Of a stretch of 64,000 nt of DNA, positions 2 through 55,609 are shown piece after piece. Every line of letters begins with the position of its first letter. Positions within the stretch are counted from its first letter, which is position 1. Source of the DNA: Candidatus Staskawiczbacteria bacterium (GTDB lineage: Bacteria; Patescibacteriota; Minisyncoccia; Minisyncoccales; Staskawiczbacteraceae). Position numbers and translations under genes: made by a program. The notes below the pieces were generated by a model. It saw only the letters and a program-made list of their open reading frames with translations. It was not told the origin of the DNA and ran no database searches. Location: NCBI GenBank assembly GCA_903845295.1, contig CAIMWV010000015.1, positions 6,354 through 70,353 of the forward strand, in the 5' to 3' direction.

Positions 2-142
2 TTGTGCCATATATCTGAATTTGAATCAAAAGAGAAAATGGAAGAGCAGATGAAAGTCGGAGAAACTTACGACTTCCAGGTTTTGTTAATAGAGCCGAAG
101 GAACATAGAATGAGCTTAAAATTAGTAACTACTCCAAAATAA
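2..142 (+). CDS. C-terminal fragment of an S1 RNA-binding-domain protein (5' end outside window)
   Basis: Frame 2 is open from the window edge to TAA 140-142. Translation LCHISEFESKEKMEEQMKVGETYDFQVLLIEPKEHRMSLKLVTTPK resembles the end of an S1/OB-fold repeat. Confidence 0.5.
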   Translation: MCHISEFESKEKMEEQMKVGETYDFQVLLIEPKEHRMSLKLVTTPK

Positions 143-151
143 ACGCATTAA

Positions 152-177
152 AAAATCCTCCACTCGGAGGATTTTTT
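152..177 (+). terminator. Rho-independent terminator after the S1-domain gene
   Basis: aaaatcctcc / actc / ggaggatttt stem-loop followed by a T run. Confidence 0.6.
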
Positions 178-341
178 AATTATAATATGGATATGGCGAC
201 CCCGCACCAATTTCAGCGATGGTTTTAGAAATAGTTAGTTTTTCTGCGAAGCACCTTCGGCTGTCACCAAAGTTATATAAGATTATCTGTAAAATTGGTG
301 AAGGGGTTTCGCGGCGGCAAGGAAATTATATTCCGCCGCTC

Positions 342-376
342 AAAAAAAAGAAGCGTTTGCCGAGAACAAACGCTTC
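342..376 (-). terminator. Rho-independent terminator of G+C-rich cassette 1
   Basis: Minus strand reads gaagcgtttg-ttctcgg-caaacgcttc followed by T8, 54 nt downstream of the stop at 430. Confidence 0.6.
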
Positions 377-429
377 ATGAAACTGATGTGCTGTTGCACC
401 TACTGCTGGCTTCTCGGACCAGCTTGTTT

Positions 430-1491
430 CTAGGCTGCTGCCGCTTCTGCGGCCGCGGCCTTTCTAGCCTTCTTGGTCTTGGGCTTCTTCGCCCGAGACT
501 TCCTGGGCTTGGGCTTCGCCACAGGCGCGGTTTCAGCCGGCGGATTCAGAATGGCATCGAATCCGCGGACCAGCATGTGGCCCAGGAGACCGGTCTTCCC
601 AGCCTTCCCGGAAAAAACCAGGCTGGCCGAGATTTGCGGATGGTGTGCCATTGCCTTCCGCGCATTAGCCTCGGCCACCCCCATACCGCCACCGCCAAGC
701 TCGTTGACCACGTCCATGATCAGCAAGCGGTTGTTATAGTACTTGACGAGCAACCTGCACCCTTGATGGGTGAAGGTCTTTCCGGGCCGCTTCTTGTCAT
801 CCACCATTTCGGGCGGAACATCCAAGAAAAATATCCCGTGCTGGCCGGCAATGGCATCTGTCGAGTCAATGTCAGCCTTGCCGACGAACTCATCAATCCT
901 CTCCTGCCGAAACTGCTTGACCGCCTCCTGCGTCCGGCTACGCATATCCCGATAGAGCTGGCGGAATTCGGCGATGTCCTGTCGGCTGATGGGAAGGCCA
1001 TCCGGGAGATTGTACGACACCCCATAGATGGTCGCTGGCTTCTGCTCGCCGTCCCCGAACTTCTTCCAACCGCCGGGCAGGTCGGCTTGGGGGTCGCGCT
1101 CGACACACTTGACCAGAATACCACGGTCGGCCATCTTCTCGAACATGGCCTTACACTGATCGTGGGTCTGAAAGGTCTGACCCAGTTGGTGCCGGAAGTA
1201 CGCCAGCCAGGCCTCCCGTTGGAGCAGTCTGTCTCCTGAATTCCAGAGGCAGCTGTCGCTGTACAGCCAGTCCTCCAACTCTGGCGCATTCGACAACGCC
1301 TGGCCGGCGGCGTCAGCATCCTCGTACTCCCAGATCGCCGGCATTGCCTCGTCGAACCACTCGCGCAGGGTTTTGATTTCACCCGCTCGGGCCTTTCGCT
1401 CTTCGGCCGCCTTTTTCGCCGAGACCACCTTGGGTCTCGCACGTTTACTGCCCGAGCTCAGCTCGGGGTCTGACTTTTTTGCTGGAGGCAT
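430..1491 (-). CDS. Hypothetical protein, 353 aa, G+C-rich foreign-looking gene with Lys/Arg/Ala-rich tails at both termini
   Basis: Long minus-strand ORF (track 430..1533), trimmed to ATG 1491, which has GGAGG 6 nt upstream. It has its own promoter and terminator. No family recognised. Confidence 0.7.
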   Translation of the reverse strand: MPPAKKSDPELSSGSKRARPKVVSAKKAAEERKARAGEIKTLREWFDEAMPAIWEYEDADAAGQALSNAPELEDWLYSDSCLWNSGDRLLQREAWLAYFRHQLGQTFQTHDQCKAMFEKMADRGILVKCVERDPQADLPGGWKKFGDGEQKPATIYGVSYNLPDGLPISRQDIAEFRQLYRDMRSRTQEAVKQFRQERIDEFVGKADIDSTDAIAGQHGIFFLDVPPEMVDDKKRPGKTFTHQGCRLLVKYYNNRLLIMDVVNELGGGGMGVAEANARKAMAHHPQISASLVFSGKAGKTGLLGHMLVRGFDAILNPPAETAPVAKPKPRKSRAKKPKTKKARKAAAAEAAAA

Positions 1492-1568
1492 GAGCCCCCT
1501 CCTTCCCTGGGCCGTAGCCCAAAAAGATCCCAAACTGTCAAAATGCTTCCTTAACTTAACATAATCAT

Positions 1569-1597
1569 ATTATAGCAAATTTATATGTCTTTGTCAA
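1569..1597 (-). promoter_or_regulatory. Consensus sigma70-type promoter driving cassette 1
   Basis: Minus strand TTGACA (1597-1592), 17-nt spacer, TATAAT (1574-1569), about 70 nt upstream of ATG 1491. Confidence 0.55.
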
Positions 1598-1619
1598 GTC
1601 TCCACCATACAAATAATGC

Positions 1620-1648
1620 TTGCTATAAAACGTATAGATTTATATAAT
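1620..1648 (+). promoter_or_regulatory. Candidate promoter upstream of ftsH
   Basis: TTGCTA, 17 nt, TATAAT. A second extended -10 (TGgTAAATT, 1742-1750) lies 7 nt before ATG 1758. Confidence 0.4.
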
Positions 1649-1757
1649 TTTTTAATAAACCCAATAAATAGCACTGACGGAATAGTGAAGACTCAAGGGT
1701 TTCTACTATTCTTCTGCTTTATTGAATTTATTTTAAAAATATGGTAAATTATTTTAT

Positions 1758-3605
1758 ATGAACCCATTACTTAAAAATTTTATATTTGTCATTTTAATTC
1801 TTCTTGTTGTCGGAGGGATTTTTAGCTTGCTTTATTTCCCGACTTCAACCCCGAATGAAATATCTGCCACGCAATTAATTTCTGATATAAACAATAATAA
1901 AGTCAAAAAAATTACCGTCTCGGGAGATATATTGAACATTGTTTACACTGATAATAAAACCGCGATTTCAATGAAAGAATCCGGCACAGGATTAACGGAC
2001 TTATTGATAAACTTGGGGGTCAACAAAGACAGCCTTCAAAAAGTTGAAATTTCAGAACAGCCGGCCCAGCAGGATTTATGGTCCTGGCTGACCCCGCTTT
2101 TAGTCTTCGGCATTTTGCCCCTAATTGTGTTTGGATTTTTCTTCTGGACAATGATAAGGCAGGCAAAATCCGGCGCAGTTCAGGTATTTGATTTTACAAA
2201 AGCCAAAGCCCGCCTTTTCGGAGCCGAAGGCCATGGAAAAGAAAAAATAACCTTTAAAGATGTGGCCGGATTAAAAGAGGCAAAGGAAGAGCTGGTTGAA
2301 ATTGTTGACTTTCTGAAGTTTCCTAAAAAATATCTGGCAATGGGAGCCAAAATCCCAAGGGGAGTTTTGCTTGTAGGAGCAGCCGGAGTCGGAAAAACCT
2401 TATTGGCAAGAGCTGTTGCCGGCGAAGCCAATGTGCCGTTTTTATCAGTTTCCGGATCAGAGTTTGTGGAAATGTTTGTTGGCGTAGGGTCCGCCCGCGT
2501 CAGGGATTTATTTGCAACAGCAAAAAAATCTGCCCCATCGATAATCTTTATTGATGAATTGGATGCAATCGGGCGCCACAGAGGAGCCGGCATTGGCGGA
2601 GGGCACGATGAAAGAGAACAGACGTTAAACCAGATTTTAGTTGAAATGGACGGATTTGAGAAAGAAACGGGAGTTATAATTTTAGCCGCCACAAACAGGC
2701 CGGATATTTTAGACCCTGCTCTTTTAAGGCCCGGAAGATTCGACAGAAAAATCGTTTTAGATCCGCCGGATGTCCATGACAGAGAGGAAATTCTTAAAAT
2801 CCATTCAAAAGGAAAACCATTGGGAAAAGATGTTGATTTCAAAGAAACTGCCGAGAGAACTCCCGGATTTACCGGAGCTGACCTGGCCAATGTTGCCAAC
2901 GAAGCCGCTTTATTGGCTGCCAGACAAAATAAAACCGTTGTTGACCAGAAAGAATTTTTAGAGGCAATTGAAAAAGTTTTGTTGGGGCCTGAGAGAAAAT
3001 CCCATATTTTATCCAAAAAAGAAAAGGAAATAGCAGCATATCACGAAGCAGGACACGCCTTGGTTTCCACATTTATGCCGGATACAGAACCTGTAAGAAA
3101 AATATCGATCATTGCCAGAGGAATGGCAGCAGGATATACATTGCAAGTTCCATCAGAAGAAAGGAAAATGAAAACAAAAACCGGTTTTATGTCAGAAATT
3201 GCCACCCTGCTTGGAGGTTACTGTGCTGAAAAAATAAAGTTCGGCGAAATGACAACCGGAGCTTCAAATGATTTAAGCAGGGCTTCGGAAATGGCAAGGA
3301 AATTAGTCAAAGAATACGGAATGTCGTCTTTGGGCCCGATTTCTTTTGGCGAAAAAGAAGAGCTGGTATTTTTGGGAAAAGAAATTTCTGAACAAAGAAA
3401 TTATTCTGAAAAAGTTGCAGAAAGAATCGATGAAGAAGTTGACGTAATTATAAAAGGAGCGCAGAAACAAGCAGAGATAGTTTTATTAAAACACAAAAAT
3501 TTATTAGACAAGGTGGGAAAAGATTTGATTGAAAAAGAAACCATTGAAAAAGAAGAATTTGAAAGAATAATCGGTGTCCATAAAAATAACAGCAAAAAAT
3601 CATAA
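1758..3605 (+). CDS. ftsH: ATP-dependent zinc metalloprotease FtsH
   Basis: 615 aa. N-terminal TM helices, AAA Walker A GAAGVGKT, Walker B IIFIDELD, zinc motif HEAGHA. Confidence 0.95.
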   Translation: MNPLLKNFIFVILILLVVGGIFSLLYFPTSTPNEISATQLISDINNNKVKKITVSGDILNIVYTDNKTAISMKESGTGLTDLLINLGVNKDSLQKVEISEQPAQQDLWSWLTPLLVFGILPLIVFGFFFWTMIRQAKSGAVQVFDFTKAKARLFGAEGHGKEKITFKDVAGLKEAKEELVEIVDFLKFPKKYLAMGAKIPRGVLLVGAAGVGKTLLARAVAGEANVPFLSVSGSEFVEMFVGVGSARVRDLFATAKKSAPSIIFIDELDAIGRHRGAGIGGGHDEREQTLNQILVEMDGFEKETGVIILAATNRPDILDPALLRPGRFDRKIVLDPPDVHDREEILKIHSKGKPLGKDVDFKETAERTPGFTGADLANVANEAALLAARQNKTVVDQKEFLEAIEKVLLGPERKSHILSKKEKEIAAYHEAGHALVSTFMPDTEPVRKISIIARGMAAGYTLQVPSEERKMKTKTGFMSEIATLLGGYCAEKIKFGEMTTGASNDLSRASEMARKLVKEYGMSSLGPISFGEKEELVFLGKEISEQRNYSEKVAERIDEEVDVIIKGAQKQAEIVLLKHKNLLDKVGKDLIEKETIEKEEFERIIGVHKNNSKKS

Positions 3606-3622
3606 AGGGATTCCCCCTTTAT

Positions 3623-3696
3623 GGGCCTGTAGCTCAGCTGGTTAGAGCACGGCTCTTATAAAGCCGGGGTCGATGGTTCGAGTCCATCCAGGCCCA
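3623..3696 (+). tRNA. tRNA-Ile (anticodon TAT)
   Basis: Manual cloverleaf: gggcctg/caggccc acceptor, anticodon arm cggct-cttataa-agccg, T arm gatgg-ttcgagt-ccatc. 74 nt, no encoded CCA. Confidence 0.85.
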
Positions 3697-3723
3697 CAAA
3701 ATTGAAAAAATTAGTAAAAATAA

Positions 3724-3796
3724 GGGCGCTTAGCTCAGTTGGTAGAGCATTTACTTGACGTGTAAAGGGTCATAGGTTCGAGTCCTATAGCGCCCA
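3724..3796 (+). tRNA. tRNA-Val (anticodon GAC)
   Basis: Acceptor gggcgct/agcgccc, anticodon arm tttac-ttgacgt-gtaaa, T arm atagg-ttcgagt-cctat. Confidence 0.9.
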
Positions 3797-3892
3797 CCGG
3801 GAATTTAAAAATTTGCGAAAACTATGGGTTTGCCCAGTGATAAACACTGGGCGTCGGGTGTTAATCACCCGACGAGTCCTATAGCGCCCACA
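3797..3892 (+). repeat. tRNA-trailing mini-insert ending in a 19-bp duplicate of the tRNA-Val 3' end
   Basis: cgagtcctatagcgcccac occurs at 3779-3797 and again at 3873-3891. Two hairpins (gcccagtg..cactgggc, gtcgggtg..cacccgac) sit just before the second copy, which ends 1 nt before the RluA-family ATG. Confidence 0.6.
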
Positions 3893-5231: not shown

Positions 5232-5418
5232 GGGCGCTTAGCTCAGTTGGTAGAGCACTTCATTTATTCACCCCGTTAAATTTTGGACGATTAGCTCAGT
5301 TGGCTAGAGCGTCTCACTTACACTGAGAAGGTCGCAGGTTCGAGTCCTGCATCGTCCACCAAAAAATATTTAACGGGGCAAGCTGAAGGGGTCATAGGTT
5401 CGAGTCCTATAGCGCCCA
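5232..5418 (+). tRNA. Interrupted tRNA (identity unclear) whose anticodon region carries a 114-121 nt insert containing tRNA-Val(TAC)
   Basis: The 5' half gggcgcttagctcagttggtagagcacttca (5232-5262) and 3' half tgaaggggtcataggttcgagtcctatagcgccca (5384-5418) form a complete acceptor, D, anticodon-stem (cttca/tgaag) and T-arm set. Confidence 0.5.
5285..5361 (+). tRNA. tRNA-Val (anticodon TAC), CCA encoded, nested inside the interrupted tRNA
   Basis: Acceptor ggacgat/atcgtcc, anticodon arm tctca-cttacac-tgaga, T arm gcagg-ttcgagt-cctgc. Confidence 0.9.
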
Positions 5419-5564
5419 CATTATTAATTTTAAGACGCCGAAGGTGTTTTAAAATTAATAAATAATAGGTTCTATGTGGCGAGAACCTATTCCCCGAATT
5501 GTCCCGAGCCAGCAGGCGAGGGAGCAATGCCTTCGGGCAACTCTTCGAGTCCTATAGCGCCCAC
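5419..5564 (+). repeat. tRNA-trailing mini-insert ending in a 21-bp duplicate of the preceding tRNA 3' end
   Basis: ttcgagtcctatagcgcccac occurs at 5399-5419 and 5544-5564. Internal hairpins are present. The 20-nt motif gcaatgccttcgggcaactc (5524-5543) is identical to 14872-14891. Confidence 0.55.
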
Positions 5565-5574
5565 CAAATTTAAT

Positions 5575-12032: not shown

Positions 12033-12116
12033 GTGCCCCTAGAACCTCCATTTAAGGTTTAGGAAACCTTCGCCCTATCTTCCCCCCCCACACCAATGCG
12101 CCCTCGGGAGGAATCT
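12033..12116. pseudogene. Rearranged fragments of tRNA-Arg(CCT)
   Basis: gaacctccatttaaggtttaggaaacct.cg.cctatc and gccctcgggaggaatc duplicate parts of the intact gene at 12217-12288 but in permuted order. ccccacaccaatgc is the inverted copy of gcattggtgtgggg at 12287-12300. Confidence 0.5.
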
Positions 12117-12180
12117 CACCGGCAGTTCTCGAAAGCAACAAGGGGGCTGGAGTTTCTCAACCTTCCCAAAGACAATATAA

Positions 12181-12214
12181 AACCTGGGGCGCTAAATAGC
12201 GCCCCAGGTTTTCT
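12181..12214 (-). terminator. Hairpin terminator downstream of tRNA-Arg(CCT)
   Basis: 12-bp stem aacctggggcgc/gcgccccaggtt, loop taaata, T-rich flanks. Confidence 0.5.
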
Positions 12215-12216
12215 TG

Positions 12217-12288
12217 TGCCCTCGGGAGGAATCGAACCTCCATTTAAGGTTTAGGAAACCTCCGTCCTATCCGTTGAACGACGAGGGC
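12217..12288 (-). tRNA. tRNA-Arg (anticodon CCT)
   Basis: Reverse complement gccctcg...cgagggca, anticodon arm gaggt-ttcctaa-acctt, T arm ggagg-ttcgatt-cctcc. Confidence 0.9.
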
Positions 12289-12425
12289 ATTGGTGTGGGG
12301 CAAATTGAACAACAAGGGCTTTGTTTATTTAATACGTTAACACAATTTTTATAAAACTGCAAGTTGCTATTTTATAGATTATTCTGATATAATTATTCAA
12401 TTACTCAATATTAAAATTTAAAAAC

Positions 12426-14682: not shown

Positions 14683-14711
14683 TTGTCAAAGGAAAAATTT
14701 TGTGATAATAT
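14683..14711 (+). promoter_or_regulatory. Promoter of the tRNA-Arg/Gly unit, sharing its -35 with a divergent promoter
   Basis: TTGTCA, 17 nt, TGaTAATAT on the plus strand. The minus-strand TTGACA (14689-14684), 17 nt, TATTAT points at tRNA-Pro/His. Confidence 0.45.
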
Positions 14712-14724
14712 ATTAGTTAATTCA

Positions 14725-14796
14725 GCCCTCGTAGTTAAATGGATATAACTCTAGCCTTCTAAGCTGGTGTTGGAGGTTCGATTCCTCCCGAGGGCA
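14725..14796 (+). tRNA. tRNA-Arg (anticodon TCT)
   Basis: Acceptor gccctcg/cgagggc, anticodon arm ctagc-cttctaa-gctgg, T arm ggagg-ttcgatt-cctcc. Confidence 0.9.
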
Positions 14797-14914
14797 CAAA
14801 GCCTGGATTTAAATACAAAGCAATTCGAGGGAGGATGAGAACCTCCACCCCCGGATTGCGAGCGAAGCGAGGCAATGCCTTCGGGCAACTCGGTTCGATT
14901 CCTCCCGAAGGCAC
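14797..14914 (+). repeat. tRNA-trailing mini-insert ending in a 23-bp (1 mismatch) duplicate of the tRNA-Arg(TCT) 3' end
   Basis: ggttcgattcctcccgagggcac at 14775-14797 versus ggttcgattcctcccgaaggcac at 14892-14914. The second copy is preceded by gcaatgccttcgggcaactc (14872-14891), identical to 5524-5543. Confidence 0.55.
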
Positions 14915-14917
14915 CAT

Positions 14918-14988
14918 GCAGGTATCGTATATCGGTATTACCTTAGCTTTCCAAGCTAATGAGAGGGGTTCGACTCCCCTTACCTGCT
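14918..14988 (+). tRNA. tRNA-Gly (anticodon TCC)
   Basis: Acceptor gcaggta/tacctgc, anticodon arm ttagc-tttccaa-gctaa, T arm agggg-ttcgact-cccct. Confidence 0.9.
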
Positions 14989-14997
14989 CAAAATGCA

Positions 14998-15024
14998 GAA
15001 ACCACCTTAACGGGTGGTTTTTGT
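14998..15024 (+). terminator. Rho-independent terminator after tRNA-Gly(TCC)
   Basis: aaaccacc-ttaacg-ggtggttt followed by T run. Confidence 0.6.
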
Positions 15025-15074: not shown

Positions 15075-15602
15075 ATGACAGATAAATTTATCAATTTATA
15101 TGATTTTATAGATTTCGCCAGGGCTAACCGAAAATATCCGGACAATACGGCAAATAATTTGAAATCTGCTCTAAAAATTTTTGAGAAAGAACTGAATGCG
15201 GAAGAACTTAAGTCTATAAGCATGGTAGAGGACAGCATAGGAGAAATTTTTAGGAGCTTAGTGATTGCAAATAAAAACAAAAGCATTTTATCTTTGAATA
15301 CCTACAAGGCCCGCCTGCTTAAAGTTATAAAAGACTACAAAAAATATGGCGCAGAACCCGGCAAAATACAAAATTGGGTTGTAAAAATAAAGAAATCCAC
15401 ACCCCTGTTAATTAAGAAAGATAAAACAGATAAAAAGAATATAGAATTATCTAATCTTATCCATACTCCTGTGGAGAAACTCCACAAGATAGATATTTCT
15501 TTTGACTGTGACACGGTTAAAATTTCGATTCCAAAAGACATTAGCGCCAAAGAAGTTAAAATGATAAAAGGTGTCCTGGACTCCTTAACGACTAGAGATT
15601 AA
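15075..15602 (+). CDS. Hypothetical protein, 175 aa
   Basis: ATG ORF with AT-rich native composition. No family recognised. Confidence 0.55.
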   Translation: MTDKFINLYDFIDFARANRKYPDNTANNLKSALKIFEKELNAEELKSISMVEDSIGEIFRSLVIANKNKSILSLNTYKARLLKVIKDYKKYGAEPGKIQNWVVKIKKSTPLLIKKDKTDKKNIELSNLIHTPVEKLHKIDISFDCDTVKISIPKDISAKEVKMIKGVLDSLTTRD

Positions 15603-34391: not shown

Positions 34392-34508
34392 TGGAACTGC
34401 CCCACTCCGCCAAGGCTTCGCGGGGCACCACTTCGCTTTTTGAAAATTATTTTTCAAAAATTGTTTAGTGCTTGCACCGCGTAGCTCCGAACGAAGAGAG
34501 GAGCGAAG

Positions 34509-34582
34509 TGGTGGACCTGGGGAGAATCGAACTCCCGCCTCAGCAATGCGAATGCCGCGTAATGCCACTTTACTACAGGCCC
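34509..34582 (-). tRNA. tRNA-Ala (anticodon CGC), CCA encoded
   Basis: Reverse complement gggcctg...caggtcca-cca, G3:U70 pair, anticodon arm cggca-ttcgcat-tgctg. Confidence 0.9.
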
Positions 34583-34602
34583 GTTGGAATATCTAATAAA
34601 TG

Positions 34603-34625
34603 CCCTCCGGCGCATCGCTCAGGGC
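34603..34625. repeat. G+C-rich mini-element copy (intergenic)
   Basis: ccctccggcgcatcgctcagggc. Confidence 0.5.
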
Positions 34626-34685
34626 ACTTCGCTTTACTAACTCTTTGCAGTTGCCTGCATTGAGCGAGCGAAGCGAGTCGAAGTG

Positions 34686-37155: not shown

Positions 37156-37428
37156 ATGTTCTATGTTTATTTTTTATTTTTAAATAACCAAAATATTTAT
37201 AAAGGATTTACTGCCGATTTAGAAAGAAAAATCGAATAACACAAAACAGGAAGGGTTGCATCAACAAAAAATAAAAATCCGACGCTTATCCACTATGAAG
37301 CCTATCTGCTAAAAACAGATGCGGAAAGGCGCGAGAGATTTCTCAAAACTACTGAGGGCAGAAGATTGCTTAAACAACAATTAAAAGATTTACTAAATAA
37401 ATTAGGTTCGTCAGGTCATTCGACCTGA
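37156..37428 (+). pseudogene. GIY-YIG nuclease gene with in-frame TAA (37237-37239), inserted at the tRNA-Lys 3' end
   Basis: MFYVYFLFLNNQNIYKGFTADLERKIE*HKTGRVASTKNKNPTLIHYEAYLLKTDAERRERFLKTTEGRRLL... parallels the intact copy at 34152..34391. The stop replaces the conserved Glu (GAA to TAA). Confidence 0.7.
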
Positions 37429-37466
37429 CGCCCAGTCGGATGACTGGGCGAATCCTGTTGAGGGCA

Positions 37467-37495
37467 CCCTTCGACTCGCTTAGCTCGCTCAGGGC
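37467..37495. repeat. G+C-rich mini-element copy (intergenic)
   Basis: cccttcgactcgcttagctcgctcagggc. Confidence 0.5.
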
Positions 37496-37580
37496 GAACT
37501 TCTTTACAAAAGAACAAAATTAGAGTATATTATATCTATTATTAACCTTGGACGCCGGAAGCGCCCTTGTATATTAAAAA

Positions 37581-55111: not shown

Positions 55112-55201
55112 AAGGTGTTCAGCGGAAATTAGACCAGCAATGTATAAGATATATCAAGGTCTAATTTCCGAAGCAAATCTGCTCGCCTCGCTCGCAGACC
55201 C
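55112..55201 (+). promoter_or_regulatory. Two-hairpin leader RNA motif, copy D (abuts GTG of the PrgI-like gene)
   Basis: cggaaattagacc-agcaatgtataagatatatcaa-ggtctaatttccg, then tctgc-tcgcctcgctc-gcaga, then ccc-GTG. Confidence 0.6.
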
Positions 55202-55609
55202 GTGGAACAATATCCTATACCACAATTTATTGAATCAGAGAGCAAAATTATTTCGTTCATGTCATTTAAACAATTTTTTTACCTTGTGGGAGCCGGGCTC
55301 ATCTGTTTTTTCCTGTATTTTATTTTGCCCCGCGTTCTTTTTTTTATAGTTAGCGCTATAATTTTTCTTGCTGCAATAGTACTCGCCTTCGGAACAATGG
55401 GCGGCACTCCCATACTAAATATAATTTTAGGATCGATTGGTTTTTCAATGGGCGGCAAAGATTATACATGGAAAAAGAAGGAATCCCCCTACCCTTTCAA
55501 ACCGATAAAAAGGACTCAGATTAAAAAAATAGAACAAGGCCCTGTTTTACAGGCCCAAACAAGCCAATTAAAAAGAACGCGCACTGCGATAGAAATGCGC
55601 ACTAAGTAA
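55202..55609 (+). CDS. PrgI/VirB3-like small membrane protein of a type IV secretion system
   Basis: 135 aa. MEQYPIPQFIESESKIISFMSFKQFFYLVGAGLI followed by two TM helices. Located two genes upstream of VirB4. Confidence 0.6.
   Translation: MEQYPIPQFIESESKIISFMSFKQFFYLVGAGLICFFLYFILPRVLFFIVSAIIFLAAIVLAFGTMGGTPILNIILGSIGFSMGGKDYTWKKKESPYPFKPIKRTQIKKIEQGPVLQAQTSQLKRTRTAIEMRTK

Follow-up and report, generated by a model that had tools for sequence, protein, structure and literature searches.

Some stable-RNA genes of E. coli (tRNA genes or rRNA operons) are directly followed, in the same orientation, by repeats of unknown function known as tRNA-linked repeats (TLRs), which were defined after Egan & Landy 1978 and Rudd 1999 (PMC8144298). 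A locus holds one to five such units, and over its last 18-19 bp a unit matches the 3' terminus of its upstream gene exactly; in rrn-linked TLRs, a role in guiding cleavage by RNase E has been proposed for this 3' repeat (PMC8144298). In that source, which assigns TLRs no function, we found nothing on their mobility. Tandem G.A has been noted in the related RtT RNA (10.1101/2020.02.04.933952).

Other systems touch tRNA genes in different ways. T4 SegB is described as a GIY-YIG homing endonuclease within a tRNA gene cluster (PMC2330249). Group I introns in tRNA are known from Patescibacteria, in an account that mentions no 3'-end duplications (PMC13011429). Our literature searches found no published description in Patescibacteria of inserts like those reported here.

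We analysed a stretch of 64,000 nucleotides (the window) from a contig of Candidatus Staskawiczbacteria bacterium, in which short inserts lie behind two tRNA genes, and compared it with related genomes, metagenome contigs and the E. coli repeats.

Inserts behind two tRNA genes of the window

The 20-mer GCAATGCCTTCGGGCAACTC occurs on the plus strand at 5524-5543 and 14872-14891, against zero expected occurrences and zero matches in 100 shuffles; the rest of the window holds no further match even with up to three mismatches allowed. Directly after each copy, the 3' end of the upstream tRNA is duplicated. The preliminary description had reported this arrangement, with one mismatch in the Arg repeat, and its coordinates were reproduced; the Arg mismatch is a G>A change, and the Val repeat is exact (21/21 nt). 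Each insert begins at the base directly after the tRNA 3' end, and neither contains an ORF. We call the family that they represent family A. The tRNA-Arg(tct) locus is laid out as follows.

14683..15024, plus strand: putative transcription unit (consensus scans)
14683-14711, plus strand: promoter-like site (consensus scan)
14725..14797, plus strand: host tRNA-Arg(tct), intact (ARAGORN; Rfam tRNA model, 68.2 bits)
14775-14797, plus strand: repeat copy 1, GGTTCGATTCCTCCCGAGGGCAC, the last 23 nt of tRNA-Arg (positions about 52-74)
14798..14891, plus strand: family-A insert, 94 nt (covariance model CM R1, 57.6 bits, E 5e-16; fold z-score -3.3)
14829-14850, plus strand: T-arm mimic, GGGAGG-ATGAGAA-CCTCC, whose stem is exactly the host T stem
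14855-14876, plus strand: helix P2, ATTG-CGAGC-GAA-GCGAG-G-CAAT, with tandem G.A
14872-14891, plus strand: 20-mer with GCC-TTCG-GGC hairpin
14892..14914, plus strand: repeat copy 2, with one G>A change, followed by CA-T and tRNA-Gly(tcc)
14918-14989, plus strand: tRNA-Gly(tcc), downstream of the insert
14995-15024, plus strand: terminator (consensus scan)

The corresponding site of L182 is insert-free and reads tRNA-Arg(tct)-CCA-T-tRNA-Gly (...CCGAGGGCACCA-T-tRNA-Gly), exactly the junction that copy 2 retains in the window; copy 2 would be the original 3' end of tRNA-Arg, pushed downstream by the insert. To judge from the consensus scans, promoter, tRNA-Arg, insert, tRNA-Gly(tcc) and terminator probably form one transcription unit, and the insert, lying inside it, would be transcribed as an inter-tRNA spacer.

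At the second locus, the resident tRNA-Val(tac) is broken in the anticodon loop in the window and uninterrupted in the relatives L047, L049 and L051.

5399..5419, plus strand: repeat copy 1, TTCGAGTCCTATAGCGCCCAC, positions 54-74 of tRNA-Val(tac)
5420..5543, plus strand: family-A insert, 124 nt (CM R1, 75.8 bits, E 1e-21; fold z-score -5.5)
5420-5461, plus strand: long A/T-rich hairpin (inverted repeats)
5465-5490, plus strand: T-arm mimic, ATAGGTTC-TATGTGGCGAGAA-CCTAT
5498-5528, plus strand: helix P2
5524-5543, plus strand: 20-mer
5544..5564, plus strand: repeat copy 2, exact TTCGAGTCCTATAGCGCCCAC, followed by CA and tRNA-Phe

Three more tRNAs of the window, Val(gac), Arg(cct) and Lys(ctt), have repeats of their own 3' end downstream. 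The insert behind tRNA-Arg(cct) can be assigned to family A only tentatively, as its CM R1 score is just 5.9 bits.

12090..12215, minus strand: diverged insert behind tRNA-Arg(cct), with terminator hairpin, mimic GGAAGG-TTGAGAAA-CTCC and then TGCTTTCGAGAAC
12098-12117, minus strand: GAGATTCCTCCCGAGGGCGC, after TGCTTTCGAGAAC

A structured module attached to many tRNA species

A conserved structured module of about 75 nt ends on its right side with GCAATGCCTTCGGGCAACTC. Both window copies fit the covariance model end to end, in agreement with the earlier observation that the sequences upstream of the 20-mer are related. The full module was recovered in 24 of 34 GTDB matches, all 24 in CPR MAGs, and on at least 120 metagenome contigs. 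The preliminary description had asked whether the 20-mer lies mostly away from tRNA genes, and whether its junction with tRNA-derived sequence is consistent. It does not avoid tRNA genes: 19 of the 24 GTDB matches have a detected tRNA within about 110 nt upstream. The junction is consistent: among the matches listed, 110 non-redundant copies lie at most 400 nt downstream of a tRNA (about 100 nt behind it), and the host tRNAs of these listed copies represent 14 isotypes and at least 29 anticodons. Repeat copy 2 can be aligned with at most two mismatches in 95 of the 110 listed copies and begins at tRNA position 52-54 in 67 of those 95; in the listed copies, its identity extends 1-2 nt beyond the discriminator. 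The duplicate spans positions of about 52/54 to 74/75, with starts ranging over positions 52-61. Inserts have a median length of 116 nt in the listed copies and a family range of about 70-300 nt. The proximal tRNA copy often lacks CCA, and the distal copy keeps it. Units are single in the window, form tandem arrays in L016, L026 and L152, and form mixed arrays in L054 and L078.

Helix P2 covaries. In a length-matched alignment subset, five of its pairs are changed on both sides, a number reached by 1 of 500 shuffles, with a covariation score reached by 0 of 500; MAFFT combined with RNAalifold returned invariant pairs alone because the variable hairpin was misaligned. Across copies, the tandem G.A swaps with Watson-Crick pairs, and in L049 ATTGC/GCAAT is replaced by ATCGC/GCGAT. 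The long left hairpin includes G.U-type pairs. The hairpin that the preliminary description saw in the 20-mer (tgcc-ttcg-ggca) is real as GCC-TTCG-GGC, yet invariant, so that covariation cannot test its pairing. At least 29 different tRNA species are followed by this conserved module with its covarying helix.

The T-arm mimic equals the host T stem in 35 of the 110 listed copies, compared with 8.7 expected and a maximum of 18 in 1000 permutations, a test that overstates independence because orthologous copies are part of the sample. This agreement is beyond the reach of a simple cut-and-fill model. A further proposed pairing, between the mismatched Arg copy and GCCTTCGGG of the 20-mer, is present in the predicted fold but turned out to be peculiar to the Arg copy: the acceptor strand of tRNA-Arg, GCCCTCG, happens to be one base from GCCTTCG, and pairing of this type is missing in the Val copy and in members with unrelated acceptor strands (TCCCGCC, CCGGAGC).

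Elsewhere in the window, CM R1 matches 55163-55235 with 16.5 bits, a lone tandem-G.A hairpin with no stable-RNA gene nearby.

Filled and empty sites

Genomes differ in whether an orthologous site is filled or empty. The tRNA-Val(tac) site is empty in L047, where ACTTCGACTCGC directly follows the tRNA, and filled in L049 and L051, where the tRNA is followed by a 124-nt insert, the 21-nt repeat and then flank as in L047, a clean 145-nt indel between close relatives. The tRNA-Arg(tct) site is likewise filled in the window and empty in L182. An empty site may also stem from deletion between the direct repeats, so that no single locus fixes the polarity. One site can host different families: behind tRNA-Val(gac), the window has an insert of a second family, described below, and L047 and L049 have family-A inserts.

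Related elements behind different tRNAs each carry the duplicate of their own host. The best-scoring cross-isotype pair, in L059 (Val) and L115 (Arg), consists of closely similar elements, each with a perfect host-specific duplicate, and in L059 and L072 the T-stem mimic still fits another tRNA type. These observations uphold the proposal that tRNA 3' ends host a family of small mobile inserts, ORF-less and with a constant right terminus. The proposal that they insert in tRNA T loops stands in part: the duplicate has its start within the T loop or beside it, but the tRNA gene is left intact, so that the element is placed behind the tRNA and the T loop is not interrupted.

On contigs with an identical neighbour protein, gene spacing is unchanged. 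We considered the 175-aa neighbour of the Arg locus (15075-15602), homologs of which JGI names 'XerD' and for which there is no Pfam or PDB match, as part of the element; it adjoins filled and empty sites alike and hence does not belong to it.

A second family with or without a GIY-YIG gene

Two other tRNAs of the window, Val(gac) and Lys(ctt), are occupied by inserts that share a pair of hairpins.

3798..3891, plus strand: hairpin-pair insert behind tRNA-Val(gac), no ORF; 26-nt spacer, then ATGGGTTT (diverged 5' half of a T arm)
3832-3873, plus strand: two 8-bp hairpins
3874-3891, plus strand: 18-nt copy of tRNA positions 57-74
37156..37467, plus strand: hairpin-pair insert with ORF behind tRNA-Lys(ctt); intact ortholog in L180
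37410-37449, plus strand: hairpin pair, preceded by AGGTTC, after the GIY-YIG gene
37450-37467, plus strand: 18-nt copy of the tRNA 3' end

The gene behind tRNA-Lys(ctt), of GIY-YIG (UPF0213-like) type, begins at the base after the tRNA and is a pseudogene with an in-frame TAA; in a tblastn search this frame (37156-37425, with the internal stop) was the single GIY-YIG reading frame of the window. More broadly, there are GIY-YIG genes that directly abut tRNA-Lys, tRNA-Arg(gcg) and tRNA-Leu(tag), with their first base next to the tRNA, and an 18-nt 3'-end copy follows each. L032 has the tRNA-Ser/tRNA-Arg(gcg)/RecG synteny without the gene. The CPR protein has about 90 aa, is of the UPF0213/YhbQ type (PDB 1YWL, 1ZG2) and lacks a DNA-binding domain. 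Outside tRNA genes, a hairpin pair bounded by a 20-nt direct repeat lies downstream of 16S rRNA in L127.

The suggestion that the 20-mer inserts derive from a GIY-YIG element finds no support, since family A has no sequence relation to the hairpins or the ORF of that element; the insert that does derive from it is the one behind tRNA-Val(gac), 3798-3873. Nor is a MITE-like nature of the family-A inserts supported. They have only internal hairpins, with left and right termini that do not pair and thus no terminal inverted repeats, the left terminus is unconserved, and the duplication of 21-23 bp varies in length; in the family-A copies examined, we found no transposase, integrase or GIY-YIG gene that would mark an autonomous parent. 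An unconserved left end combined with a variable duplication length is unusual for a transposase.

Comparison with E. coli TLRs

The window inserts resemble TLRs in several respects. Both lie directly behind a tRNA in the same orientation, both end in a copy of the upstream 3' end (23 nt with one mismatch for Arg, 21/21 nt for Val), and family A forms tandem arrays. Three motifs are common to the tyrT unit and the window element and occur in the same order: the T-arm mimic (GGGGAAGG-ATGAGAAG-CTTC in tyrT and GGGAGG-ATGAGAA-CCTCC here, with a stem that copies the host T stem and the loop ATGAGAA), the tandem-G.A hairpin (CGAGCGccaGCGAG and CGAGCGaaGCGAG) and the end hairpin (GCGTTGCC-gca-GGCAACGA and GCAATGCC-ttcg-GGCAACTC). 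The CPR units differ in length, about 95-145 nt versus 178, in the absence of two RtT hairpins, and in a repeat of 21-23 nt.

In model searches, the similarity between family A and RtT is not significant and falls far below threshold in both directions. The Rfam RtT model (RF00391) scored 16.5 bits (E 0.4) at 14815-14916 against a gathering threshold of 45, gave no match on the Val copy (5415-5570) and reached the gathering threshold nowhere in the window. Conversely, CM R1, which was built from CPR copies, placed two tyrT repeats at ranks one and four among its matches in L035; both cover the full length, on the right strand, with scores of 6.8 and 5.8 bits (E 0.1-0.2), and the third repeat scored 1.2 bits. 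A sequence-only nhmmer search of family A against RtT gave no match.

Origin and spread of the inserts

On balance, we consider it somewhat probable that family A consists of small, ORF-less, RNA-structured mobile inserts, a Patescibacteria counterpart of the E. coli TLRs, which enter by target duplication and the RNA of which is co-transcribed with the tRNA. The duplicate would be a true target-site duplication, produced by entry into a staggered break and subsequent fill-in, with nicks at the 5' edge of the T loop and just beyond the discriminator, about two helical turns apart. Such an insertion would leave the tRNA intact and displace the original 3' end, often with its encoded CCA, downstream. 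As family A encodes no protein, a nuclease or integrase would have to act in trans; the candidate is the small GIY-YIG (UPF0213-type) nuclease of the sister hairpin-pair family, which uses the same kind of site. That the sole GIY-YIG gene of the window is a pseudogene counts against this explanation, as do the unconserved left end, the variable length of the duplication and the agreement of the T-arm mimic with the host T stem. The large ORFs of the 64-kb window yielded no integrase, transposase or reverse transcriptase. Once transcribed, the insert may be freed by tRNA processing as a structured RNA, and selection on the released RNA would account for the conserved helices and the T-arm mimic.

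An unlikely route to the same pattern is homing, by which a GIY-YIG or HNH nuclease would cut an empty tRNA allele that is then repaired from the filled allele of a relative; the two repeats would be part of the donor allele, giving right-hand homology, and the family-A insert would be a passenger which lost or never had its nuclease gene. The position of the GIY-YIG genes against three tRNAs with 18-nt copies, the L032 synteny that lacks the gene, the SegB precedent, an HNH-like ORF adjoining tRNA-Arg(tct) in L182 and a tRNA sequence conservation sufficient for homology arms agree with homing. As in the T4 Seg family, a small GIY-YIG gene of the tRNA-Lys(ctt) sister family sits between tRNA and neighbour and is present or absent by genome; unlike in T4, it is flanked by the duplicated tRNA 3' end and the hairpin pair at T-loop position 56/57, and ORF-less family A does not encode the GIY-YIG domain of a freestanding homing gene. 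Moreover, copy 1 completes an intact tRNA, so that filling would not protect an allele from cutting if recognition did not reach into the flank; a jump to a new tRNA type predicts chimeric tRNAs, whereas perfect host-specific duplicates are seen; the duplication at a non-tRNA site is not predicted; and the 90-aa protein is without a DNA-binding domain. Least probable of the readings considered here is that the repeats are attL/attR scars of tyrosine-integrase islands, the short inserts being remnants after island deletion or miniature elements moved by an integrase in trans, and the repeat being the attP/attB identity block of islands that use the T-loop sublocation. In the Williams 2002 classification, many tRNA-integrating islands reportedly have such an identity block between T loop and 3' end, the stretch that is also repeated here. 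As in tyrosine-integrase elements, the inserted DNA is flanked by a direct repeat of the tRNA 3' end and the tRNA stays functional; the proximal copy is often CCA-less with CCA in the distal one, and L032, the longest case, has a 3.7-kb restriction-modification island between tRNA and module. A direct repeat from the crossover site to the tRNA 3' end is, however, common to other models. Family A differs in being about 100 nt long and integrase-free: no integrase was found in the inserts, the L032 island (which has no recombinase) or the large ORFs of the window. An invariant integrase arm beside at least 29 different cores contradicts core-type site recognition, the junction position varies, more than 100 independent deletions all leaving the same ~100 nt are implausible, and compensatory changes speak for structure in RNA or in a single strand rather than for binding sites on duplex DNA.

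As improbable, in our estimate, as homing is that the inserts are not mobile at all, being functional spacer or trailer RNAs or cis processing signals with a tRNA-like 3' end selected for recruiting the same 3' maturation enzymes, in which case genome differences would reflect loss and occasional recombination. The conserved covarying helices with their tandem G.A, the G.U-type pairs of the left hairpin and the position of the Arg copy within an apparent transcription unit (consensus scans) fit an RNA function, and E. coli provides parallels in RtT RNA, a processed tyrT product, and in rrn-linked TLR RNAs that bind Hfq and CsrA (PMC8144298). A spacer function is compatible with mobility, as a mobile element can also yield RNA, but by itself leaves unexplained why one module sits behind 29 tRNA species, each with the right duplicate, why it is swapped for an unrelated insert family at one site, and why close relatives differ by a clean 145-nt indel. 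A more far-reaching extension, somewhat less likely than either homing or a purely RNA role, is a pan-bacterial TLR class of protein-less RNA-structured mobile elements copied through their own transcript, SINE-like, with a GIY-YIG nick. The element would be transcribed behind the tRNA, with its 5' end cut by tRNA 3' processing and copy 2 as its 3' end; this tail would anneal, over positions 54-74, to a tRNA gene with a nick in its bottom strand, the T-loop nick being made by a candidate small structure-specific GIY-YIG (UPF0213/YhbQ) nuclease, and target-primed synthesis would copy the RNA into DNA. Such copying would explain why the right end is constant and the left end variable, yet always placed at the tRNA processing site, as well as the duplication of 21-23 nt, the tandem arrays and the architecture shared by E. 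coli and Patescibacteria.

Entry by target duplication, the explanation we favour, has looser parallels. Casposons produce 14-15 bp target duplications, often at tRNA 3' ends, and casposons, CRISPR repeat duplication and LINE/SINE target-primed insertion all make long duplications from staggered cuts. Family A shares the long duplication, one precise and one variable end and the preference for tRNA 3' ends, a resemblance only; its duplication is longer (21-23 bp), and neither Cas1 nor reverse transcriptase was found in the window (Pfam on large ORFs).

Several further candidates were rejected. A phage origin found no megablast match to phage records, and the window encodes FtsH, L19, IF2, RNase Y, trigger factor, NusA, PNPase and the CCA-adding enzyme. 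A guide RNA (scaffold and 20-nt guide, as in TnpB/IscB omega RNA or IS110 bridge RNA) would have no such protein in the window, the "guide" runs in the sense direction of the tRNA, and what filled and empty sites show is more simply explained by a true duplication. For a group I intron or other known ribozyme, Rfam gave no intron match even with an E-value limit of 10, and family A shows neither the ribozyme core nor the anticodon-loop insertion nor the terminal G of group I introns: its insert follows an intact tRNA, and its last bases are ...CTC. A degenerate tRNA or minihelix gene would need the acceptor-like pairing that is seen in the Arg copy alone.

Implications

The CPR family supplies what E. 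coli TLRs do not: more than 100 diverged copies behind almost all kinds of tRNA, sites that are cleanly filled or empty, rival insert families at one site and a covarying RNA helix. The inserts also yield tRNA 3'-end fragments and pseudo-tRNAs that mislead CPR tRNA annotation and the prediction of att sites and islands. Among enzymes, the comparison singles out the small GIY-YIG/UPF0213 proteins as a candidate family, the E. coli member of which is, to our knowledge, uncharacterised. Whether TLRs are mobile elements aimed at tRNA 3' ends thereby becomes a testable question.

The shared 20-mer and its association with tRNA genes

The window comes from a bacterial chromosome of the Patescibacteria (CPR) type. 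It encodes FtsH, ribosomal protein L19, a short IF2, RNase Y, trigger factor, NusA, PNPase and a CCA-adding enzyme together with 18 tRNA genes, and the closest homologs of its L19 and of a neighbouring protein come from Staskawiczbacteria MAGs. Two short, ORF-less inserts, each located behind a tRNA gene, end in the same 20-mer, GCAATGCCTTCGGGCAACTC:

5524-5543, 20-mer at the right end of the insert behind tRNA-Val(tac)
14872-14891, 20-mer at the right end of the insert behind tRNA-Arg(tct)

No further match with up to three mismatches is present in the window, and 100 shuffles yielded 0 matches. Directly 3' of the 20-mer, the 3' end of the host tRNA (copy 1) is repeated (copy 2), over 23 nt with one G>A change for tRNA-Arg(tct) and over 21 of 21 nt for the Val tRNA, exactly as the preliminary description had it. 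The additional proposal that the mismatch allows the Arg copy to pair with GCCTTCGGG agrees with the predicted fold, but the pairing is a local accident that is missing from the Val copy: it arises because the tRNA-Arg acceptor strand GCCCTCG is one base off GCCTTCG, and the acceptor strands of other members of this family, here denoted family A, are unrelated to that motif.

An exact scan for the 20-mer in one genome per species returned 34 loci, of which 24 lie in CPR MAGs and comprise the whole module (Nealsonbacteria, Staskawiczbacteria, Wildermuthbacteria, Saccharibacteria and others). The upstream module is missing from the remaining 10, which belong to unrelated bacteria and seem to be chance matches. 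A stricter pattern, GAATYG-gap-20-mer, gave at least 120 matches in metagenome contigs. Rather than lying mostly away from tRNAs or at inconsistent junctions, the 20-mer was found, among the matches listed, in a non-redundant set of 110 copies at most 400 nt downstream of a same-strand tRNA, with hosts that have 29 different anticodons and represent 14 amino-acid types. In 95 of the 110, copy 2 could be aligned to the host tRNA with at most two mismatches; in 67 of these 95 its first base corresponds to tRNA position 52-54, and the identity usually continues for 1-2 nt past the discriminator. The median insert length is 116 nt. Some hosts are missed by ARAGORN, being a tRNA-Asn 3' end preceded by non-tRNA sequence.

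Structure of the inserts

The left part of the insert is usually a long, A/T-rich, terminator-like hairpin with a G+C-rich tip and G.U-type pairs (5420-5461 in the Val copy). It is followed by a hairpin that mimics the T arm, in which the stem copies the host T stem and the loop reads (A/C)(T/G)GAGAA(C), as in GGAGG-ATGAGAA-CCTCC behind a tRNA-Arg with the T arm GGAGG-TTCGATT-CCTCC. The 3' strand of the host T stem was found in the mimic region of 35 of 110 copies, against 8.7 expected and at most 18 in 1000 permutations, a test that is inflated by orthologous copies. The sequence (T)CCCCGAATTG connects the mimic to helix P2, which is variable in length and closed by ATTG/CAAT with a bulged G, and the insert ends with a GCC-TTCG-GGC hairpin and AACTC.

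Among 20 length-matched copies, five P2 pairs have changed on both sides, a count reached by 1 of 500 shuffles, and the covariation score was reached by none of the 500. Two positions switch between tandem G.A/A.G and G-C/C-G, and in one relative ATTGC/GCAAT is replaced by ATCGC/GCGAT. Such compensatory changes mark a structure that is under selection as RNA, or possibly as single-stranded DNA.

A family-A covariance model matches the window only at the two reported copies, with 75.8 and 57.6 bits. Given its score of only 5.9 bits, a look-alike insert behind tRNA-Arg(cct) would be a distant relative at best. The model also gives 16.5 bits (E 0.003) to a lone tandem-G.A hairpin, CTGCGAGCGAGGCGAGCAG with TTGCTTCGGAA after it, in an intergenic stretch at 55163-55235 (minus strand) that has no tRNA nearby.

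Gain and loss of inserts

Relatives for comparison at the tRNA-Val(tac) locus were picked via L19. In contig L047 (L19 91% identical) the site is empty, with ...AGCGCCCAC directly joined to ACTTCGACTCGC..., whereas L049 and L051 (90% and 87%) read ...AGCGCCCAC, a 124-nt insert, TTCGAGTCCTATAGCACCCAC and ACTTCGACTCGC..., a clean 145-nt indel that comprises the insert and one repeat. At the tRNA-Arg(tct) locus, L182 retains the synteny His-Pro-Arg(tct)-Gly(tcc)-175-aa gene-ZIP and has no insert (...CCGAGGGCACCA-T-tRNA-Gly). In the window, the corresponding junction, ...GGCACCA-T-tRNA-Gly, follows copy 2, and AA follows copy 1; the distal copy is therefore the original tRNA-Arg 3' end.

An empty site could also originate by deletion between the repeats. 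Gains are nevertheless required, because the tRNA-Val(gac) site carries a hairpin-pair insert of a second family in the window versus family-A inserts in L047 and L049, and because pairs of closely related elements have different host tRNAs (Val in L059 and Arg in L115; Thr in L072 and Leu in L087). All four carry a perfect duplicate of their own host, and the T-arm mimics of L059 and L072 still fit another tRNA type. Tandem and mixed arrays occur as well. Filled and empty sites, the Val(gac) swap and the host changes bear out the view of a mobile family of small inserts; the designation MITE-like finds no support, as family A has neither terminal inverted repeats nor a conserved left terminus.

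The conserved 175-aa protein gene (15075-15602) has no Pfam or PDB match, and several of its homologs are called 'site-specific recombinase XerD' in JGI. It is syntenic beside tRNA-Gly(tcc) with or without the insert (L181, L182) and is thus probably unrelated to the element. In L182, a small nuclease-like gene (364-675), a 103-aa ORF with an HNH-like Cys/His pattern, overlaps the start of tRNA-Arg(tct) with its end.

A sister family with GIY-YIG genes

The second family consists of hairpin pairs, with or without a small GIY-YIG gene (PF01541):

window 37156-37467, plus strand, element behind tRNA-Lys(ctt); 90-aa GIY-YIG ORF starts at 37156, the first base after the tRNA
L036, L037, L042, GIY-YIG gene behind Arg(gcg)
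L038-L041, GIY-YIG gene behind Leu(tag); single partial hairpin in L039, the one inspected
L180, GIY-YIG gene behind Lys(ctt); intact ortholog of the window locus

The window gene is a pseudogene, as it contains an in-frame TAA; the 3' part of its element consists of AGGTTC and two 8-bp hairpins, after which tRNA positions 57-74 recur as an 18-nt copy. We found 239 homologs of about 90 aa, all from CPR where a source names them or contigs were examined, and their nearest solved relatives are the UPF0213 proteins 1YWL and 1ZG2. In all contexts inspected, the gene lies directly 3' of a tRNA and is followed by hairpins and a tRNA 3' copy; the genes of L036, L039, L042, L180 and the window end in GGTTC, the hairpin pair and an 18-nt tRNA 3' copy. 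Starting right at the tRNA 3' end, the gene could yield a leaderless mRNA via tRNA processing. In L032, the tRNA-Ser/tRNA-Arg(gcg)/RecG synteny is kept and the gene is absent. In Giovannonibacteria (L172-L179), the order is tRNA-Ser(cga) positions 1-56, hairpin pair, GAATC, spacer, GIY-YIG gene and intact tRNA-Ser, with the pair always at T-loop position 56/57 of the truncated upstream copy; the unit is tandem in some contigs. The suggested derivation of family A from the GIY-YIG element was not confirmed; the idea fits the window Val(gac) insert instead, which is an ORF-less version of the GIY-YIG/hairpin-pair family.

Comparison with E. coli tRNA-linked repeats

[quoted passage not shown] The E. 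coli tyrT locus (L035) follows the same plan as the window element: starting after the tRNA-Tyr 3' end, it has a T-arm mimic, GGGGAAGG-ATGAGAAG-CTTC (host T stem GAAGG/CCTTC), a tandem-G.A hairpin, CGAGCGccaGCGAG, then GCGTTGCC-gca-GGCAACGA, about 30 more bases and a 19-nt tRNA 3' copy. In a permissive Rfam search with the Arg copy, RtT RNA (RF00391) was among the two best weak matches (16.5 bits, E 0.4; threshold 45). With the CPR covariance model, the tyrT repeats rank first and fourth in L035, collinear and full length at only 6.8 and 5.8 bits, and the third repeat scores 1.2 bits; nhmmer found no match between the CPR family and RtT/tyrT. By architecture, the window elements display every TLR feature that can be tested; by sequence model, they fall outside RF00391, and homology with the E. 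coli TLRs is plausible. Our literature search found no description of TLR-like elements in Patescibacteria.

Other tRNA features of the window

The gene for tRNA-Val(tac) (5232-5419) is split in the anticodon loop, which reads CTTCATTTACACTGAAG in L047, L049 and L051; in the window, about 117 nt stand in place of CAC. They include a further, complete tRNA-Val(tac) gene that encodes its CCA (5285-5361), and inverted repeats, CACCCCGTTAAAT (5269-5281) and ATTTAACGGGG (5368-5378), lie on either side. The arrangement resembles an element that interrupts a tRNA gene and brings along a replacement copy. At 12040-12330 (minus strand), an older, decayed tRNA-Arg(cct) copy encloses tRNA-Arg(cct) and the insert behind it; the 5' fragment GCCCTTGTTGTTCAAT of the older copy lies upstream and an anticodon-arm to T-loop fragment downstream (12043-12072), the two being bounded by the inverted repeat CCCCACACCAAT / ATTGGTGTGGGG. 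A third trailer type, (A)CTTCGACTCGCTTCGCTCGCTCA ... GCGAAGTGCCC-hairpin, lies behind tRNA-Pro(cgg), tRNA-Ala(cgc) and Lys copy 2 and, in the census, behind many CPR tRNAs and copy 2 units; behind tRNA-Val(tac) it is present in L047, L049 and L051 and absent at the window site:

window 34600-34682, minus strand, third trailer type
window 34440-34512, minus strand, third trailer type
window 37468-37502, plus strand, third trailer type
L047 2214-2304, third trailer type
L049 2358-2476, third trailer type

Thirteen window tRNA genes without encoded CCA or CC have C-A after the discriminator (e.g. CAC|aaaatt, A73-C-A), which may serve as a signal for processing or represent an incomplete CCA; four others have full CCA, and Val(gac) has C-C-G.

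Mechanism and significance

We favour copy 2 as a true target-site duplication, since each jump brings the correct duplicate of the new host and since, in L127 (560-660), a hairpin pair of the sister-family type that lies in a spacer 3' of a 16S rRNA gene has a direct repeat of 20 nt, CGAAACAACTTTAA(A)GAA(A)CT, on either side. The duplication is thus not confined to tRNA genes. The element would enter a staggered break, with one strand nicked at the T loop's 5' edge and the opposite strand just past the discriminator, about 21 bp away, and fill-in would follow. Such insertion would leave the tRNA intact and would explain why the encoded CCA is often kept in the distal, not the proximal, copy. 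The Arg copy has a promoter-like site (14683-14711) on one side and the terminator behind tRNA-Gly (14995-15024) on the other, and its transcription, with release during tRNA processing, is probable.

Homing, with break repair from a filled allele, is unlikely, and so, to the same degree, is a purely functional spacer RNA; both are compatible with mobility. The covarying P2 helix is in keeping with a spacer RNA, as is the position of the Arg copy in an apparent tRNA transcription unit; the gains at new hosts speak for movement. Scars of integrase att sites would likewise place tRNA 3' ends at both flanks, and are still less probable: no integrase, transposase or reverse transcriptase was found in the inserts, among the large ORFs of the window or in a 3.7-kb restriction-modification island of L032. 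This island (56-3790), located between tRNA-Ser(tga) and a degenerate family-A module, encodes an HTH regulator, an N6/N4 DNA methyltransferase, a probable restriction enzyme and three small ORFs, with no recombinase detected.

These observations provide, to our knowledge, the first comparative evidence that TLR-type elements are gained and lost with target duplication. They link such elements, by position, to a family of small GIY-YIG nucleases, and a covarying RNA structure is now at hand for elements of the TLR type.
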